A DNA stretch of 27,544 bases. Source: an uncultured archaeon (lineage in GTDB: Archaea; Asgardarchaeota; Lokiarchaeia; Sigyniarchaeales; SOKP01). Positions 1,044-22,090 of this stretch are shown here, in pieces. The stretch spans positions 3,684 through 31,227 of the forward strand of contig CAYLZE010000026.1 of the NCBI GenBank assembly GCA_964388035.1, given 5' to 3'. The position numbers were made by a program, and so were the translations under genes. Within the stretch, counting starts at the first letter, position 1; the number at the start of each line of letters is the position of its first letter. The notes below the pieces were generated by a model that worked only from the letters and a program-made list of their open reading frames with translations, was not told where the DNA came from and made no database searches.

Positions 1044-2063
1044 ATGTTAATGGAAAAAAATAATTTAGAAGATGAAACACTGGATATCTGCCCGGAATGT
1101 GGAGGAACTTTAAAAATAAATAGTTTCGAAAAAACATGTCTTAAATGTGGACTTGTTATATGTGAAGTCTTCAAGGATTCAACATATATGATAAATGATA
1201 GAAACAGAATAGGATCTCTGAATAAACAATACGTAGCCTTAGGGGAGCGGACCGACTTTATAGGGGGTTTAGGATCATGCATAGACTATGAGAATTCAAA
1301 ATTTTTAAAGGATAGAAATGGGAGACTTTTACCTCCAAATGAGCAAAAACTTTATAGGCGATTAAAAAAGAATTATGCCCAATTTCTGAGGATTAAAGAT
1401 CATGAAACGGAATATAGAATATTCAATATTCTAAACAAAATCGCGGTCTATCTAAATTTCAATAAAAATATAAGAAATAATGCGGCTTATTATTATCGAA
1501 AAATTATTAAAAATGAAAAAAAAGTAATTAATAATATTTCTTTAATTGCATTTTGCATTTTTTATGCTGCGAGAAAAGAAAATCACAATGCTCCGATAAC
1601 GATCAATGAAATTTCTAATGCGTTTCAGAACTTTGGTCATCGTGTTAACCCACGGCTTATTTTGAGAGATGGTATAAGGTATAAAAAATATCTAATTGCG
1701 TATACGGAACCACATAAAAGTGAGGATTATCTAATTAGGCTCATACATGAAGTAATAAATCATAAAGATTTAGAAGAAAGAATGGAAAAAAAGGGATTAA
1801 ACTGGTCAAAAGGATTATATAAGAGAAATTTAATGAATAAATGTCAAGAAGTACTGAAAGGATTAGATTCATGGACACGAGGGGGGCGTAATCCATTCAT
1901 TTTAACAGGGGCAATAATATATTTAGCAGAAAAATTATTGGCTAAAGAAAATAATTATAAATCCATTTTAACTCAAAAGATGATTTCTGAAGCTACCCAA
2001 ATTGCAGAATATTCTATTAGAGATCATTATGTAAATTTATTAAAACCAATCTTTCTTAAATAA
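1044..2063 (+). CDS. tfb: divergent transcription factor IIB (TFB) paralogue
   Basis: N-terminal Zn ribbon CPECGG...CLKCGLV, cyclin-like core (IAFCIFYAARKE..PITINEI), GRNP motif and C-terminal TQKMISE HTH region. Confidence 0.85.
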   Translation: MLMEKNNLEDETLDICPECGGTLKINSFEKTCLKCGLVICEVFKDSTYMINDRNRIGSLNKQYVALGERTDFIGGLGSCIDYENSKFLKDRNGRLLPPNEQKLYRRLKKNYAQFLRIKDHETEYRIFNILNKIAVYLNFNKNIRNNAAYYYRKIIKNEKKVINNISLIAFCIFYAARKENHNAPITINEISNAFQNFGHRVNPRLILRDGIRYKKYLIAYTEPHKSEDYLIRLIHEVINHKDLEERMEKKGLNWSKGLYKRNLMNKCQEVLKGLDSWTRGGRNPFILTGAIIYLAEKLLAKENNYKSILTQKMISEATQIAEYSIRDHYVNLLKPIFLK

Positions 2064-4083: not shown

Positions 4084-5307
4084 ATGGAATACTTTGAAGA
4101 TTTTTTAAATAAGCCAACAATTTTTAAGAATGAGGGTAAATTAGATCAGAATTTTGTTCCCGATAAGCTACCACATAGAGAGAAAGAATTGTCACTTTTA
4201 TCGCAATTATTTATCGCCCTAATTATTAATCCAAATTCAATTTCAAGGAAAATATTAATTACAGGAAATACGGGAATAGGGAAAACAGTTACTGTAAAAT
4301 TATTTGGATCTTCTTTAATAAAAATAGCTAAAAAAAGACAAGTCAAAATTCAATATGTTCATGTCAATTGTAGAAAAGAAAGAACGAGTTATAAAGTATT
4401 AATATCTATAATAAAGTCTTTAGAAAAGGCCTTTCCGAAAAGGGGTTATTCTCCACAAGATTTATTAGAAATAATATTAGAATTATTAAATAAAAGAGAT
4501 CTTCATCTTCTTATTGTATTAGATGAGTTAAGATACTTAATTAACAAAGGAGAGGATTTAATTTATTCATTAACGAGAACAAATGATGATTCAATTAATT
4601 CTCCTCATAGAATTTCAATTATAGGCATCGTTAGAGATATTAGCTGTCTAAATAATCTAGATACCAGTACCCTTAGCACGCTCCAAAGAAACATTATTAA
4701 ATTCAAAAATTATTCGGTAGAGCAGATATATGATATCCTCAATTATAGAGCTCGCATGTGTTTTACTGATGATACTATATCTGAAAAAGTAATAAAAATG
4801 ATCTCGGATATTGTTTATAGTAATGGAGATATCAGATTTGGATTAAATTTATTATGGAAAGCGGGAAAAATCGCTGAAAATAGAAATCTAAAAATTATAA
4901 ATGCGGAATGCGTAAGATTGGCTAATCAAGATTTAATCCCGTTCTCAACCCAAGATATCATTAAATTTATGAACGCTCATGAATTATTGTTTCTCCTTGC
5001 TATAATAAGGAGTTTAAAAAAAGAGGATCAAGACGAAATTTCATATCATATTGCATATGAATTATATGAACTTTTATGCGAAAGTTTTGGTCTTAAGCCT
5101 AGATCCAAATCTCAGATTTGGAACTATATTCAAAATTTTAAGAAAGAGAATTTAATCAATCTAAAAATACAGAGTAAAAATATCAAAGGGAGAAAATCTC
5201 TCTTTTCTATTCCCAATATTCCTTTATCTAAATTCGAAGAGATATTAATGAATAATTTAAGTTTAAAAGATGAGATCCATGATAATAGAGAAAAATATGT
5301 GTTTTAA
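4084..5307 (+). CDS. cdc6: Orc1/Cdc6 replication initiator
   Basis: L...FVPDKLPHREKEL, Walker A GNTGIGKT, HVNC, P.RG.S, Walker B LLIVLDE, sensor-2 GDIR, C-terminal winged helix ending KGR. Confidence 0.96.
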   Translation: MEYFEDFLNKPTIFKNEGKLDQNFVPDKLPHREKELSLLSQLFIALIINPNSISRKILITGNTGIGKTVTVKLFGSSLIKIAKKRQVKIQYVHVNCRKERTSYKVLISIIKSLEKAFPKRGYSPQDLLEIILELLNKRDLHLLIVLDELRYLINKGEDLIYSLTRTNDDSINSPHRISIIGIVRDISCLNNLDTSTLSTLQRNIIKFKNYSVEQIYDILNYRARMCFTDDTISEKVIKMISDIVYSNGDIRFGLNLLWKAGKIAENRNLKIINAECVRLANQDLIPFSTQDIIKFMNAHELLFLLAIIRSLKKEDQDEISYHIAYELYELLCESFGLKPRSKSQIWNYIQNFKKENLINLKIQSKNIKGRKSLFSIPNIPLSKFEEILMNNLSLKDEIHDNREKYVF

Positions 5308-5566
5308 AATAGAAGAGTTACTTGGTTCAAAAGTGAGAGTAAAGATTTTAAAAGTATTGGCAAATCACGGTGAATTGACCATAACGTCAATAATTAAAAT
5401 GACAAATCTTAACCATAAAAGTGTATTCAAGAATTTAAAAATTTTAAAATCTTTTAATATTATTCAAGAAAAGAAATTCGGACGAATTAAGATTTATCGA
5501 TTCAATATTGAAAATATCAAAGCTAAAAGTTTCAAATCATTTCTCGACATATGGGAAGGTTTTTGA
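5297..5566 (+). CDS. winged-helix (ArsR-like) transcriptional regulator
   Basis: IEELLGSKVRVKILKVL...ELTITSI...LNHKSV..NL..L...IIQEKKFGRIKIYR. ATG 5297 (11-nt overlap with cdc6) preferred over 5270. Confidence 0.85.
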   Translation: MCFKIEELLGSKVRVKILKVLANHGELTITSIIKMTNLNHKSVFKNLKILKSFNIIQEKKFGRIKIYRFNIENIKAKSFKSFLDIWEGF

Positions 5567-5574
5567 TTTTTACA

Positions 5575-6228
5575 ATGTCTCTTTTAACGATTTTCCAGGA
5601 GTTTTTAATATTTTTCATATTCATTATTTTTATTTATAATGATTTAAAATTTAGGAAAATACCGAACCGAATTTTAAAATATGGCATTATAATTGGAATT
5701 TTAATTAATTATATTGAATTTATAAATAATAGCAAACTTCTTGTTTTACTTTTGATTAAAATATATTTCATAATTGTAATTTTTGGATTCTCATTACTAT
5801 TATATTTATGCAACATCGTTGGCGGGGGTGATGGAAAAGGAATCATTCTAATTTTCTCAATAAAATCCGTTTCAACATTAAATAATTCCATAATCATATT
5901 ATTTTTCTTGTATTTTACTTTTTTCTATATTTCTTACAATTTCATTAATTTTTTGATTAATCACAGTTCAAACTCTAAAGAGATATTCAATCAATTTTAT
6001 CTATTATATTCGATAACAACTAAAAGGAAAAAAATTTTATATAAATCTGCGTATATTTTTTATCCCCTCTCAGATCTAAACTATCTCAAAAAGTGTAATT
6101 ATATTATTAAAACGACGTCCATTATTTATGATTATAACCGGTATAAATTAATGATTTTAATACAATTTAGATTCCCAATATTTTTGTTTTTTTTATTTTC
6201 TTACTATTTATTATATATTATTGCATGA
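5575..6228 (+). CDS. prepilin peptidase, A24 family (PibD/FlaK/TadV-like)
   Basis: Polytopic membrane protein with catalytic motifs DLKFRKIPN and VGGGDGK (GxGD), C-terminal PIFLF. Start at ATG 5575 or 5551. Confidence 0.88.
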   Translation: MSLLTIFQEFLIFFIFIIFIYNDLKFRKIPNRILKYGIIIGILINYIEFINNSKLLVLLLIKIYFIIVIFGFSLLLYLCNIVGGGDGKGIILIFSIKSVSTLNNSIIILFFLYFTFFYISYNFINFLINHSSNSKEIFNQFYLLYSITTKRKKILYKSAYIFYPLSDLNYLKKCNYIIKTTSIIYDYNRYKLMILIQFRFPIFLFFLFSYYLLYIIA

Positions 6229-7769: not shown

Positions 7770-9299
7770 CTAAGCGATAAGACCCATGAAAAAAGTAAAA
7801 GAACCGAGGAATGTAATGATAAAAAATAAGTTGGGAATAATGAGAAGGAAAATTTTTTTTTGATAATTAACAATCTTCAAGAAATAATATGATGTTATAA
7901 TATTGGAAGCACATAAAGAAGACGCAATGATAATAATATTATAGATATTTATTGGGTTCCAGATATAATTTTGAGAGGTATTTAACATTAAATTAAAATT
8001 GCTATTAAGAAGAGAAAAAAAGGGAAGTAAACCACTAATAACCCCGACAATAATTGGGAGGAGGAAAAGAAAAAGAAACACTTTAAAACTTTCACCTTGG
8101 AAAGTCAACTCAATTTTTCTTGAGAGTTTTTTCTGATCTTTTAGAACATTAAGTATTTCCAAGATTCTATAAGAGGAATAGTATGAATTTTCATGGATCA
8201 TATTTTTGATAATGTATATGATAAATGTATAATGATTAGATTTTAATGTGAAATTAATTTCATTTAATACTTCGATAAAGGAAAAATTCCGACAAATCAA
8301 AGATTGAAGTGATGGTTCAATGATTTGCTTTAAAGTTGTGAAAGTGGTTTTATTTTCCGAATATGTCTCTAAGAAAGCCTTTTCGGGTGATATATTGCTT
8401 TTTAATTTGAATGCAAAAATGCCGAAAAAATTAAGAAACTCTTCATAAAGTTTCTTGTTAGAACTGGATCGATTAATGAAAAATCCTATTATTGGTATTT
8501 TAAATCTAATAAAGTGATTAAAAAGATATTTCAATAAAAATAAGAAGAGAATGACTAAGGTAATTGTAAATATTGTATTGATATTCATAAAAATTATTAA
8601 AAAAGCAATAGAAATGGGATAAAAAAAACCTATGAAGAAAACTAAGCTAATTTTGGATTCTATTTCTTTAATATAGAGATTAATTTTTTCATCGATTGTA
8701 TTTTCAGAAAATTCATTATTTTCAATTTTATAATTGAATTTATTTCCTATAAGTTCCCTCATAAAATTATTAAAATCCCGTGAAGGGGTCTTAAAATTGA
8801 AAAGCTCAGCCTCAGGTCGGGCACCTAAATGAACCTTTTCTAATATTTTTCTGAACTCATTTGATAATGGTGAATCCAGGTTTTTCATTAAATCTATAAA
8901 ATATAAACAATAATCTGCATTATTTTTAAGCGATCTTTTGACTAGGTTAAAATTGATTTTTATAAGAAATAATAATGAATCTATTTTGTTTTCAATCTGA
9001 CTTACTTTATTATAAAGATATAAATTAAATCGATATAGACAGATAATAGAGAGCATTAAAGAATAGAATATTATCATAATTAAATTTATAGATGTAAAGA
9101 CGCAAGATAGGAGAAAAGTAGTAGAAAAAGTGAGGAGAAATATTACAAAACTTGCTTTATTGACATCATTCTCAATTAAACCATATTCTCTTTTATAGAA
9201 TTCAAGATAACTGGGATTAAGATCCTTGATTTTTATCTCGGGAATTTTATAATTATGAAATAAATTGCAAAATTGCTTATATCTTGTTAGAACCTGCAT
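7770..9299 (-). CDS. type II/IV secretion platform membrane protein (T2SSF; TadB/TadC/FlaJ-like, two repeats)
   Basis: Several TM hairpins; T2SSF-like segments LSNEFRKILEKVHLGARPEAEL and FAFKLKSNISPEKAFLE; downstream of the secretion ATPase. Confidence 0.75.
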   Translation of the reverse strand: MQVLTRYKQFCNLFHNYKIPEIKIKDLNPSYLEFYKREYGLIENDVNKASFVIFLLTFSTTFLLSCVFTSINLIMIIFYSLMLSIICLYRFNLYLYNKVSQIENKIDSLLFLIKINFNLVKRSLKNNADYCLYFIDLMKNLDSPLSNEFRKILEKVHLGARPEAELFNFKTPSRDFNNFMRELIGNKFNYKIENNEFSENTIDEKINLYIKEIESKISLVFFIGFFYPISIAFLIIFMNINTIFTITLVILFLFLLKYLFNHFIRFKIPIIGFFINRSSSNKKLYEEFLNFFGIFAFKLKSNISPEKAFLETYSENKTTFTTLKQIIEPSLQSLICRNFSFIEVLNEINFTLKSNHYTFIIYIIKNMIHENSYYSSYRILEILNVLKDQKKLSRKIELTFQGESFKVFLFLFLLPIIVGVISGLLPFFSLLNSNFNLMLNTSQNYIWNPINIYNIIIIASSLCASNIITSYYFLKIVNYQKKIFLLIIPNLFFIITFLGSFTFFMGLIA

Positions 9300-9323: not shown

Positions 9324-9737
9324 TTAAAATATGTCAACCTCTATTAAATTATGGTCATAAAAGACCTTTAAGACATAATTTGAAGGAGATATATTAATAT
9401 ATTGCTTCTCTTTAAGTGATTCATTGAATTCCAGGATTTTTGTATGTAATTCCCCATCTAATAAAATTTCAAACTTTGCATATTTATCTCTGAAGATTAA
9501 AGTCATATTTTGAGGATATTGTATTCTTTTTGTATAAAATTCCTTTGGATTTTTAATAATGTGGTTAATTGCTATATTTATTTCATCAACAAAATTCATA
9601 TAATCTTCTAATTTCTCATTTTCATTGTTATTGTAATTGTTAATTTCTTTTAAGAGAGGAGCACTTGCTGTGAAAAATATCATTAAAGTTAACATTCCAA
9701 ATCCCATGATTAATGCTTTTTCAACTAAATTTGTCAT
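9324..9737 (-). CDS. pilin-like protein (minor pilin/TadE-like) lacking a leader peptide
   Basis: N-terminus M-TNLVEKALIMGFGMLTLMIFF (E at +5 after Met removal, then hydrophobic helix), amphipathic helix and beta-rich globular domain; lies between ATPase and platform genes. Confidence 0.62.
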   Translation of the reverse strand: MTNLVEKALIMGFGMLTLMIFFTASAPLLKEINNYNNNENEKLEDYMNFVDEINIAINHIIKNPKEFYTKRIQYPQNMTLIFRDKYAKFEILLDGELHTKILEFNESLKEKQYINISPSNYVLKVFYDHNLIEVDIF

Positions 9738-9882: not shown

Positions 9883-12063
9883 TTACTTAATTAAAAGGTT
9901 TTTCATTCTTCTCCAATAATCTTCCAATTCATTATATTTAAATCTAGAATAATAGGAAAGACCATGAAATAAAGAAATCAAATCTTTATTGTTAATTCTA
10001 TTATACAGCTTAAGAGAATCAAAAACATCTAAATATAGGTCGATAATTTCTGTAAATTTTTTTTCCGGTAAATCTTCATACAGCCGCACTTTTTTTATAC
10101 AATTTGAATCATAAAGGGATTGAATATTTTGCCATGTTTCAGTATTTGGTTTATAAATAAATAGATCTTGATAAAAGCCATTTGTTCCATCTAAATCTTC
10201 TGAAATTTCAGATATTGAGATGATTTTTCTGTCATTATTGATTTTTTTCATAAGTAAAATTAAATCAAGATCTTTCAAACAGGAAGAATTTATATTAAAA
10301 TGATATATAAACCGATTTATCAGAGAATTGATGTCATTCGAATGAATTGTCTGAAATCCTCTTAAACCCGCGGATAAACAATGAAACATAGCTTCTGCTT
10401 CTTCTTTAGTCAAGATTTCCCCTAAATAAATAATATCTGGAGTTCGATGAAGTAATTTTTTGATTTGATTACTCTTAGTATATTTCATTTCTTGAAAATC
10501 TTCAATGGAATCCACTTTATATTTTAATTGATGTTTCTTAAATTGGTTTTGATCCAGAGATTCAATAACATTTTCGACATAAATTTTTCTAAATTCGTTA
10601 GGAACTAATAGATCGAGAGCGTTAATTAACGTTGTTTTACCTGTATCAGTTTCTCCAGTAACAGTAATATTTATTCTCCTAATTATAATAAAAAATAAAA
10701 AAGCCGAAATTAACGGACTTAGCGTATTATTTTTGAGTAAATCCTGGATAGTGAAAATGTTTTTATTTAATTTTCGAATATCAATTGAAAACTTATGAAC
10801 ATTTATTGGTTCAACATCAATAGCAAATCTTGAGTAAAAGTACTCATTCTTAATAACGTACTTGATAGATGGGTTATCATAATCAAGTCTACTCCCGCTA
10901 TATAACCTCAGTAAAGTCTTTAATCTCTCAATCTCAATCTCGGTTAGCTTAATGCTTGTCCTGCATCTTCCGCATTTTAAATGATTTAGATAAATACATT
11001 CATCAGGAGCATCTAAAAAAATTTCTTCAATATAATTATCGATTAAGAGAGGAAATAGTTTTTCTAGATTAATTTTTTTTATTGTTGAAAGAGTTGCAAT
11101 TTTATTTATCAGTGCATCTGACAAATTATATTTTATTTTTATGATATTTTTAATTTCTTTAAAGTATTTATTTATTAAATCCTCAATAGATAGGACCTTG
11201 CTGATTTCCAGCGGTTGAGTTTCTTCAATAATGGAACTAATAATTCTTAAATAATGTTGCTCAAGCACATTATTTATAAAAAAGGGAAATATTTCATAGT
11301 ATCCCTCGACTTCATCGGGAATTCTATAAATCTTGACTTGAAAGGTCTCAAATTGACCCAGATAATATTCTTCGATTAATTCAGAACTTTTATTATTTTC
11401 TGGACCATTAACTTCTTCAATATCTCTTTCTTGGAATACTATTTTTGGAAATAGAAATTTGATAAGAGTTTTTGGCTTATTAACATTTTCTGTTAGAAAA
11501 TCAGTATGTTTATAGCATTTCTTTATAATTTCAGAATCATTTATGATAATAAATAGTTCTCCAATGAGTTTATTAAATATTGATTCTAGGTTGTGGTTTT
11601 TTATGATGAAGAAATTTTCTTTAGTTAAATCTCTTAATTTTAATATATATTTATACACCAATAGTGGATTAAGGAACTTATATTCTTCCAGTTCCAGTAG
11701 GGACAAGACGAGATCAAACTTTTTTGAATATAATATATCTTTTTTATAGGATTTTTTTACTATATTTATTAACTCATTCCAGCTGTTTTTTATAACCTCA
11801 ATTTTATCGAAATATTCAAAAAGTGGATCAAGATATTCAAAATCTAAAATTATATCGCTAGATTGAATAATAATTTTTTTATATTTTACTTTCTTATTTA
11901 TATATAAGTTTTCTAAAAAGCAATACAAACATTTAGGATTTTGGAAAAGATTTTTATTCCATTCACCACATTTGATACATTCTAAAATTAAATTATTTTC
12001 AAATTTTCCTTCTAAAGTTTCGATTACATGTAGCCGCGTTTTATTTTGAAAGTCTGTTAGCAT
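9883..12063 (-). CDS. type IV pilus / type II-IV secretion ATPase (CpaF/TadA/VirB11/FlaI family)
   Basis: DNYIEEIFLD, SIDIRK, TIQDLLKNNTLS, Walker A GETDTGKTTLINAL, Asp box VENVIE, Walker B RTPDIIYLGEI, His box QTIHS; N-terminal CxxC...CxxC. Confidence 0.93.
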   Translation of the reverse strand: MLTDFQNKTRLHVIETLEGKFENNLILECIKCGEWNKNLFQNPKCLYCFLENLYINKKVKYKKIIIQSSDIILDFEYLDPLFEYFDKIEVIKNSWNELINIVKKSYKKDILYSKKFDLVLSLLELEEYKFLNPLLVYKYILKLRDLTKENFFIIKNHNLESIFNKLIGELFIIINDSEIIKKCYKHTDFLTENVNKPKTLIKFLFPKIVFQERDIEEVNGPENNKSSELIEEYYLGQFETFQVKIYRIPDEVEGYYEIFPFFINNVLEQHYLRIISSIIEETQPLEISKVLSIEDLINKYFKEIKNIIKIKYNLSDALINKIATLSTIKKINLEKLFPLLIDNYIEEIFLDAPDECIYLNHLKCGRCRTSIKLTEIEIERLKTLLRLYSGSRLDYDNPSIKYVIKNEYFYSRFAIDVEPINVHKFSIDIRKLNKNIFTIQDLLKNNTLSPLISAFLFFIIIRRINITVTGETDTGKTTLINALDLLVPNEFRKIYVENVIESLDQNQFKKHQLKYKVDSIEDFQEMKYTKSNQIKKLLHRTPDIIYLGEILTKEEAEAMFHCLSAGLRGFQTIHSNDINSLINRFIYHFNINSSCLKDLDLILLMKKINNDRKIISISEISEDLDGTNGFYQDLFIYKPNTETWQNIQSLYDSNCIKKVRLYEDLPEKKFTEIIDLYLDVFDSLKLYNRINNKDLISLFHGLSYYSRFKYNELEDYWRRMKNLLIK

Positions 12064-21868: not shown

Positions 21869-22090
21869 TCATATACCAAAAAAATTTTTTATTTTATCGA
21901 GAGAGTTGCTTGATTCGCCAATACTCCAATTAAGCATATCAGTTACTACAGTGATAATCATGAAAAACAGAAAAAGAGCAAATCCAATAAGTAATGCGTA
22001 CTCTGTCATATTACCTGCCCATTCATCAAAAAAAAAGGACCTAATTTTTTCTTTTATTAAATTTATTTTTTTTAGTAATTTCATAATCAC
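21869..22090 (-). CDS. Flp/Fap-type type IV pilin
   Basis: Basic leader ...FFFDEWA|GNMTEYALLIGFALFLFFMIITVV: Flp motif with E5-Y6, hydrophobic helix, about 48-aa predicted mature product. Confidence 0.8.
   Translation of the reverse strand: MIMKLLKKINLIKEKIRSFFFDEWAGNMTEYALLIGFALFLFFMIITVVTDMLNWSIGESSNSLDKIKNFFGI

Follow-up and report, generated by a model that had tools for sequence, protein, structure and literature searches.

A candidate major pilin for the archaeal type IV filament subclade 4D in Asgard archaea and Thermoproteota

A short gene in a 27,544-nucleotide stretch of a Lokiarchaeia genome (hereafter the window) very probably encodes, on the evidence of sequence and gene context, the major pilin of subclade 4D, a type IV filament (T4F) system that archaea appear to have inherited vertically. 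In its description by Makarova et al. (2016, PMC4858521), this subclade combines an ATPase whose N-terminal domain contains Cys with RPB8, a TFIIB homologue and a membrane protein, and a pilin had never been found; its gene set consists of the arCOG05558 ATPase, the arCOG05557/13890 membrane protein and the arCOG05559 TFIIB homologue (PMC4858521, PMC13705601). The 2016 table lists no pilin for 4D (PMC4858521). A 2026 survey still treated it as pilin-less, suggested that it is a non-functional remnant, and characterized the T4F genes of Asgard archaea as scattered, ambiguous in type and unclear in origin (PMC13705601). In the literature that we searched, no paper was found that defines this pilin family or ties it to 4D.

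The pilin gene and its machinery in one Lokiarchaeia genome

The host genome is 5.47 Mb in size and 96.7% complete, and belongs to the order common to Ca. Lokiarchaeum ossiferum and Promethearchaeum syntrophicum but to a different family, the genomes of these two having been identified via their proteins. The window lies on contig C26, which has the lowest GC content of the assembly (28.7% vs 33.4%). Contamination was ruled out because the only L3, L4, L23, LysRS and Rli1 genes of the genome are located on this contig.

The open reading frame at 21869-22090 on the reverse strand reads as originally predicted, with a leader ending in DEWA, a mature start GNMTEY, and E5 and Y6. Its probable start is the ATG at 22084, preceded by the Shine-Dalgarno-like GTGAT, and the database gene call is likewise 71 aa long (P0001). 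Removal of the basic 23-aa leader leaves 48 aa, in agreement with the mature length of about 48 aa proposed at the outset. The open reading frame is a real gene. It is present as a single copy, and its motif occurs once among the 40,874 six-frame open reading frames of the genome. Mean pS is 0.65 and mean pN 0.13 across 42 homologous sequences (uncorrected, with rows chosen by motif). In an AlphaFold model (pLDDT 88), the chain kinks at the cleavage site between a leader helix and a single long helix, and there is no beta or globular domain. In an RNA-seq run of strain MK-D1, 99% of the words of a 2.1-kb stretch with the pilin gene were present, which is no measure of expression.

Database searches with the pilin were largely uninformative. 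Pfam, NCBIfam and PDB sequence searches gave no curated match, matches to FliP, TrbL and PsbH were dismissed as hydrophobic noise, and Foldseek returned no matches to the single-helix model. The ESM Atlas placed Promethearchaeota clusters at the top, one of them auto-named Flp/Fap, and bacterial clusters below 0.9; we regard this as a lead only. Most copies are annotated as hypothetical, as had been expected, with the exception of the P. syntrophicum copy, which RefSeq names "Flp family type IVb pilin"; automated pipelines name single members of the family "Flp".

The window also encodes the components expected of a filament system (table 1).

Table 1. Pilin gene and associated features in the window
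Feature	Coordinates	Strand	Remarks
TFB paralogue	1044..2063	+	Most similar to the TFB genes that flank the ATPase in 4D loci of Asgard archaea and Thermoproteota
A24 prepilin peptidase	5575..6228	+	Both catalytic Asp residues present (N-terminal D, GGGD); only A24 match in the genome
Platform protein	7770..9299	-	Fused form of two genes (TadC-like then TadB-like)
Leaderless pilin-like protein, 137 aa; probable minor pilin	9324..9737	-	Met at -1, E5; in-frame stop three codons upstream
Divergent assembly ATPase (PF00437)	9883..12063	-	N-terminal region contains Cys; falls in the subclade 4D clade; no other T4F ATPase found in the genome
Prepilin of 4D-type filament	21869..22084	-	23-aa leader, predicted A24 cleavage A23/G24, 48-aa all-helical mature chain, E5-Y6

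A second PF00437 match in the genome was rejected as a T4F motor, its N-terminus resembling a PIN-domain ATPase. No archaellin match was found in the host genome. No other leader-bearing pilin candidate was found in this genome, which has a single assembly ATPase and a single A24 peptidase, and this upholds the original assignment of the protein as the major pilin of the system. The peptidase is short, at 217-225 aa in this genome and 156-214 aa in relatives. The same platform order, TadC-like then TadB-like, is found in unfused form in Odin, Freya, Heimdall and Thermoproteota loci. The TFB paralogue is separated from the ATPase by 7.8 kb, and none of the window's open reading frames was recognized as Rpo8.

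Several further features of this neighbourhood recur elsewhere. In the 137-aa protein (9324-9737), Met at -1 and E5 are in register with a mature pilin, and this leaderless register recurs in about ten 4D loci of Asgard archaea and Thermoproteota, in several of which a stop codon lies just upstream. A Cdc6/Orc1 gene and a small HTH gene (window 4084-5566, forward strand) are found as conserved neighbours alongside the A24 peptidase and the pilin in loci across the Asgard archaea. A second fused platform copy, 35% identical and with no adjoining ATPase, is located on another contig of the genome (G000 contig C37:13533-15038).

Distribution of the pilin and its linkage to subclade 4D

We identified the pilin in 84 of 101 genomes of the window's family (five of these being weak matches) and, using a broader profile, in 244 of 268 Asgard genomes that are at least 85% complete and in 85 of the 90 of best quality. 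Pilin-bearing Asgard taxa include Lokiarchaeum, Promethearchaeum, Harpocratesius, Heimdallarchaeum, Freyarchaeum, Borrarchaeum and Odinarchaeum. The pilin was also present in 49 of the 151 Thermoproteota searched, among them Verstraetearchaeota, Brockarchaeota, Thermoproteus, Pyrobaculum and Vulcanisaeta. Methanobacteriota gave weak matches only (7/101, E about 1e-4), to Epd-like short pilins. The survey comprised these three groups. Members from cultured organisms are P. syntrophicum WP_147661801 and L. ossiferum NEF87_002710 and, within the Thermoproteota, P. neutrophilum WP_012351231 and V. distributa WP_013337439. Genomes of the Heimdallarchaeum family and Borrarchaeum carry two or three pilin copies (L073-L076, L068-L069, L083), and in one genome (G275) ATPase, pilin and platform genes occur again at a second locus.

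The pilin was noted at the outset as distant from the ATPase in the window; in many relatives the two genes adjoin. In a panel of 40 Asgard genomes, the pilin lies within about 12 kb of the divergent ATPase in 24 of the 34 genomes that have it, and five of the six pilin-less genomes have no PF00437 match at E ≤ 1e-8. Five genomes (G009, G017, G090, G310 and G319; 86-98% complete) have neither pilin nor PF00437 match at this threshold, an apparent joint loss of pilin and ATPase. Near-complete Lokiarchaeia, one of them in the window's genus, are among the genomes that show neither gene, which counts against the proposed reading. Among the 151 Thermoproteota, 47 have both genes, two the pilin only, none the ATPase only and 102 neither; this co-occurrence is a pattern rather than a test statistic, because related genomes are not independent samples and these genomes had in part been used to build the profiles. 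Two intermediate-scoring Thermoproteales ATPases (G462, G523) were rejected as 4D, and their genomes, being without pilin, constitute a negative control.

The ATPase of the window falls in one clade with the Thermoproteus and Vulcanisaeta ATPases (support 100/100 with IQ-TREE C20 and 100 with FastTree); branches in this tree are long, and shared derived motifs and synteny agree with the clade. Its members include the ATPases of Thermoproteus (343 aa) and V. distributa (525 aa), both encoded in loci of the form Rpo8-TFB-ATPase-membrane protein, and the length of the former equals that of the P. aerophilum entry for 4D (PMC4858521). TFB and Rpo8 are linked to the ATPase in Odin, Asgard family f31, Thermoproteota and Thermoproteales loci. 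The identification with 4D is based on synteny, lengths, taxa and the tree rather than on an arCOG profile.

Gene order is conserved over the same range. Co-oriented ATPase-platform-platform-pilin genes beside a TFB gene were found in Odinarchaeum and in all 15 Thermoproteota loci with context, and Rpo8 was confirmed in three such loci. The block in Odinarchaeum and Thermoproteota comprises Lsm/TGT, Rpo8, the TFB paralogue, pilin-like genes and A24, the ATPase, two platform genes and the pilin, with variable accessory gene content. In one locus of Asgard family f31 (L335), TFB, ATPase and pilin are adjacent and no platform gene was recognized nearby. A MinD/ParA-like gene occupies a TadZ-like position in the 4D loci of Odinarchaeum and a second Asgard family (L334:14223-14888; L080:4029-4691). 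Thermoproteus and Pyrobaculum keep a truncated ATPase and one short membrane gene, and stand-alone pilin homologues away from the ATPase locus are present in Thermoproteus, P. neutrophilum and V. distributa.

Because Pyrobaculum, Thermoproteus and Vulcanisaeta have these stand-alone homologues, and because all 47 Thermoproteota with the ATPase have the pilin in cis or in trans, we infer that it is most likely the missing 4D pilin and that the description of 4D as pilin-less needs revising. The system matches 4D as described in its ATPase clade, Cys-containing N-terminal region and linkage to a TFB paralogue and Rpo8. It differs in that 4D was known from 11 Thermoproteales genomes, without a pilin and as a possible non-functional remnant, whereas the system found here includes leaderless pilin-like genes, an A24 peptidase and a complete platform alongside a major pilin, and extends to most Asgard archaea and several Thermoproteota lineages. 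Subclade 4D is most likely the vertically inherited type IV filament of Asgard archaea.

Some linkage is to be expected from the location of the system in a housekeeping superoperon alone. Makarova's alternative, that 4D was repurposed for a transcription-linked role, the pilin-like gene being a passenger of the Rpo8/TFB superoperon, would account for the tight linkage to Rpo8, TFB, Lsm and TGT, the degenerate ATPase motifs and the reduced machinery of the Thermoproteales. We consider it very unlikely, however, as the presence of the pilin follows that of the ATPase even where the two genes lie far apart on the chromosome, and the cleavage motif, E5, the catalytic Asp residues of the peptidase and the pilin-like minor genes are all conserved.

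Flp-like signal residues and comparison with the Tad and Epd systems

The acidic leader end and Y6, in which the pilin resembles bacterial Flps, are characteristic of the window's family. The query and all 52 non-identical homologues from this family have G/A at -1, E5-Y6 and a short hydrophobic mature chain, and this motif is kept in 52/52, E5 being demanded by the motif parsing yet invariant in free alignments. The residue at -1 is G in most relatives and A in the query. Position -4 is acidic in 52/52, K/R at -2 occurs in 0/52, and Y6 is universal (52/52). Outside Lokiarchaeia the picture is reversed: K/R at -2 and E6 are found in 32/38 and 37/38 pilins, respectively, of other Asgard classes, and in 25/29 (22/26 and 3/3) and 28/29 of Thermoproteota pilins, so that across these 67 sequences Y6 is absent and K/R at -2 is present in 57. 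The L. ossiferum and P. syntrophicum pilins carry S6. The pilins of two Lokiarchaeia families (L259, L391) are without G/A at -1, and may be leaderless or processed differently.

The class III prepilin rule of PibD/FlaK calls for a charged residue at -2, G/A/S at -1 and a hydrophobic stretch (PMC4371748). The query has W at -2 in place of the charged residue, and FlaFind would probably miss it. The premise of the original prediction that E5(-Y6) marks a pilin as bacterial was too strong, since E5 is known in archaeal EppA substrates (PMC4371748) and we found Methanobacteriota short pilins with E5-Y6.

As the Lokiarchaeia ATPases are nested within the wider clade (100/99), the simplest reading of these sequences is that the acidic leader and Y6 were derived within Lokiarchaeia from an ancestral signal with K/R-G/A and E5-E6. 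The acidic E5-Y6 state thus looks derived and not like the relic suggested at the outset, while closeness of the system as a whole to the Tad ancestor is neither demonstrated nor rejected. Because the acidic leader and Y6 are fixed only in the window's family, the Flp-like appearance is probably convergent.

The other origin first proposed, import of a bacterial Flp gene into this lineage, is rejected and can be regarded as effectively refuted. Its appeal lies in the local motif, which closely resembles those of bacterial Flps, and in one database homologue labelled bacterial. The latter, from a "Minisyncoccales" genome (L107), is on a 4.8-kb contig (JBMCQP010000032.1) that is archaeal and mis-binned, as it has archaeal TFIIB, Hexapep and NIF3 genes in the window's order. 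The suggested search with Flp_Fap (PF04964) gave no match to the query, above the gathering score or otherwise, and weak matches to 9 of 22 homologues (best E 0.0042). A profile built from archaea other than Lokiarchaeia has the window's open reading frame as its top match in the genome (31 bits, E 6e-7), far above bacterial Flps (3-13 bits). Homologues extend across Asgard archaea and Thermoproteota with conserved synteny, the ATPase groups with archaeal 4D, and the GC content of the gene is the same as that of the window.

Compared with Flp/Tad (T4c; PF04964), the 4D system shares a short all-helical pilin, a short A24 peptidase, TadC- and TadB-like platform halves and, in the window's family of Lokiarchaeia, an acidic leader end and E5-Y6. 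It is unlike Flp/Tad in that the query has no PF04964 match, the ATPase is of archaeal type, and pilins from outside Lokiarchaeia have a basic consensus with E5-E6. The 4D loci also showed no secretin, RcpC or TadE/G-like genes. The window's ATPase is nearer to AfGspE and FlaI than to CpaF (AfGspE E=1e-24 vs CpaF 2e-10) and lies outside the TadA/CpaF clade, the Tad and 4D clades being separate with 100/100 support each. Archaella occur in Chloroflexota, and ATPases on Chloroflexota contigs and on one contig labelled Ca. Aquidulcis group with archaellum-type archaeal ATPases (L113, L170, L177, L215, L223, L108); the Ca. Aquidulcis label may be due to mis-binning.

Epd (arCOG06620, EpdE; methanogens, system 1) is similar to 4D in having a stand-alone pilin of ~70 aa without a globular domain, E5 and a platform split in two genes, and the best non-4D matches of the first 4D platform gene are Methanobacteriota platforms. 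The 4D pilin differs from that of Epd in its +1 residue, which is G or S in nearly all members and Q in none that is correctly registered. Further differences are the single short A24 peptidase in place of the long EppA type and the separate ATPase clade.

Tad is considered to have arisen from an archaeal system resembling Epd, in which the pilin is short and the platform split (PMC6668835). It is conceivable, though unlikely, that bacterial Tad (or a group of Tad and Epd) has 4D as its archaeal sister and that the Flp resemblance reflects in part common descent, a relationship compatible with the pilin being that of 4D. The traits uniting Epd and Tad (PMC6668835) are found in 4D as well, namely a short helical E5 pilin, a split platform and, for Odinarchaeum, the MinD/TadZ-like gene; in addition, the A24 peptidase is short (156-217 aa), and an AU test does not reject 4D+Tad (p=0.2). 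The same test, however, equally fails to reject 4D+Epd (p=0.2), and the best ATPase tree, in which 4D is on a very long stem, joins Tad with Epd and places 4D with other archaea (83/71). In platform comparisons Epd is nearer to Tad than 4D is, the TadC profile scoring Epd platforms at 1e-27 to 1e-21 and 4D at 1e-5, and the platform tree, in which N- and C-half paralogues are mixed, does not join 4D with Tad. The Flp-specific residues are moreover confined to Lokiarchaeia.

Proposed assembly, function and implications

By analogy with type IV filament biology, the prepilin would be anchored in the membrane, its basic leader helix on the cytoplasmic side, and the A24 peptidase would cut it after A23. 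The ATPase and platform would then extract and polymerize the 48-aa helices, E5 pairing with the N-terminus of the next subunit. The product may be a thin filament that, as in Flp/Tad and Epd pili, has no globular heads and that the leaderless 137-aa protein could prime or tip. The ATPase clade retains both Walker motifs (A and B) as well as the second His of the His box, but the otherwise conserved Arg that follows Walker B and the first His of that box have been replaced, so that motor activity cannot be taken for granted.

Surface or cell-cell adhesion is the most likely use of this filament, at roughly even odds, and DNA uptake or transfer is suggested as the main alternative. In Thermoproteota the pilin is followed by a membrane-anchored HerA/VirB4-like ATPase and an adenylate-kinase-like gene (L329:10094-11953, L322, L326, L332), and homologues are present in the window's genome on contigs C15, C19 and C33. 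It is possible, though not the reading that we favor, that processing and assembly of the subunit yield not a long adhesive pilus but a short pseudopilus or piston that serves DNA uptake or secretion. The position of the HerA/VirB4-like gene directly after the pilin in Thermoproteota, the altered ATPase motifs and the lack of any report, in the papers searched, of such pili on cultured Lokiarchaeia are consistent with a pseudopilus. Against this, the HerA-like gene does not adjoin the pilin in most Asgard loci and has its homologues on other contigs in the window's genome, and Tad and Epd show that short helical pilins can build long adhesive filaments.

The identification of a 4D pilin answers a stated open question, as two surveys had left this subclade pilin-less and possibly repurposed. 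A single pilin family is present in about 90% of Asgard genomes and is syntenic with the ATPase from Odinarchaeum to several Thermoproteota lineages. Based on this spread and synteny, we infer either one filament system inherited vertically since before the Asgard-TACK split or an ancient exchange between the two groups. The filament can be sought directly, because concrete genes are named in cultured organisms. Our results also indicate that Flp-like signals can arise convergently in archaea, which cautions against reading such motifs as evidence of bacterial transfer.

We offer more speculatively, and with considerable doubt, the proposal that 4D is a complete and ancient filament system of the Asgard-TACK ancestor, that its genes have stayed in a core superoperon for transcription and translation, and that it is the true sister of bacterial Tad among archaea. 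If so, its minor pilins would skip prepilin processing by starting at the mature position, and Asgard cells, and plausibly the host lineage of eukaryogenesis, would have possessed a conserved thin pilus for adhesion or DNA uptake.
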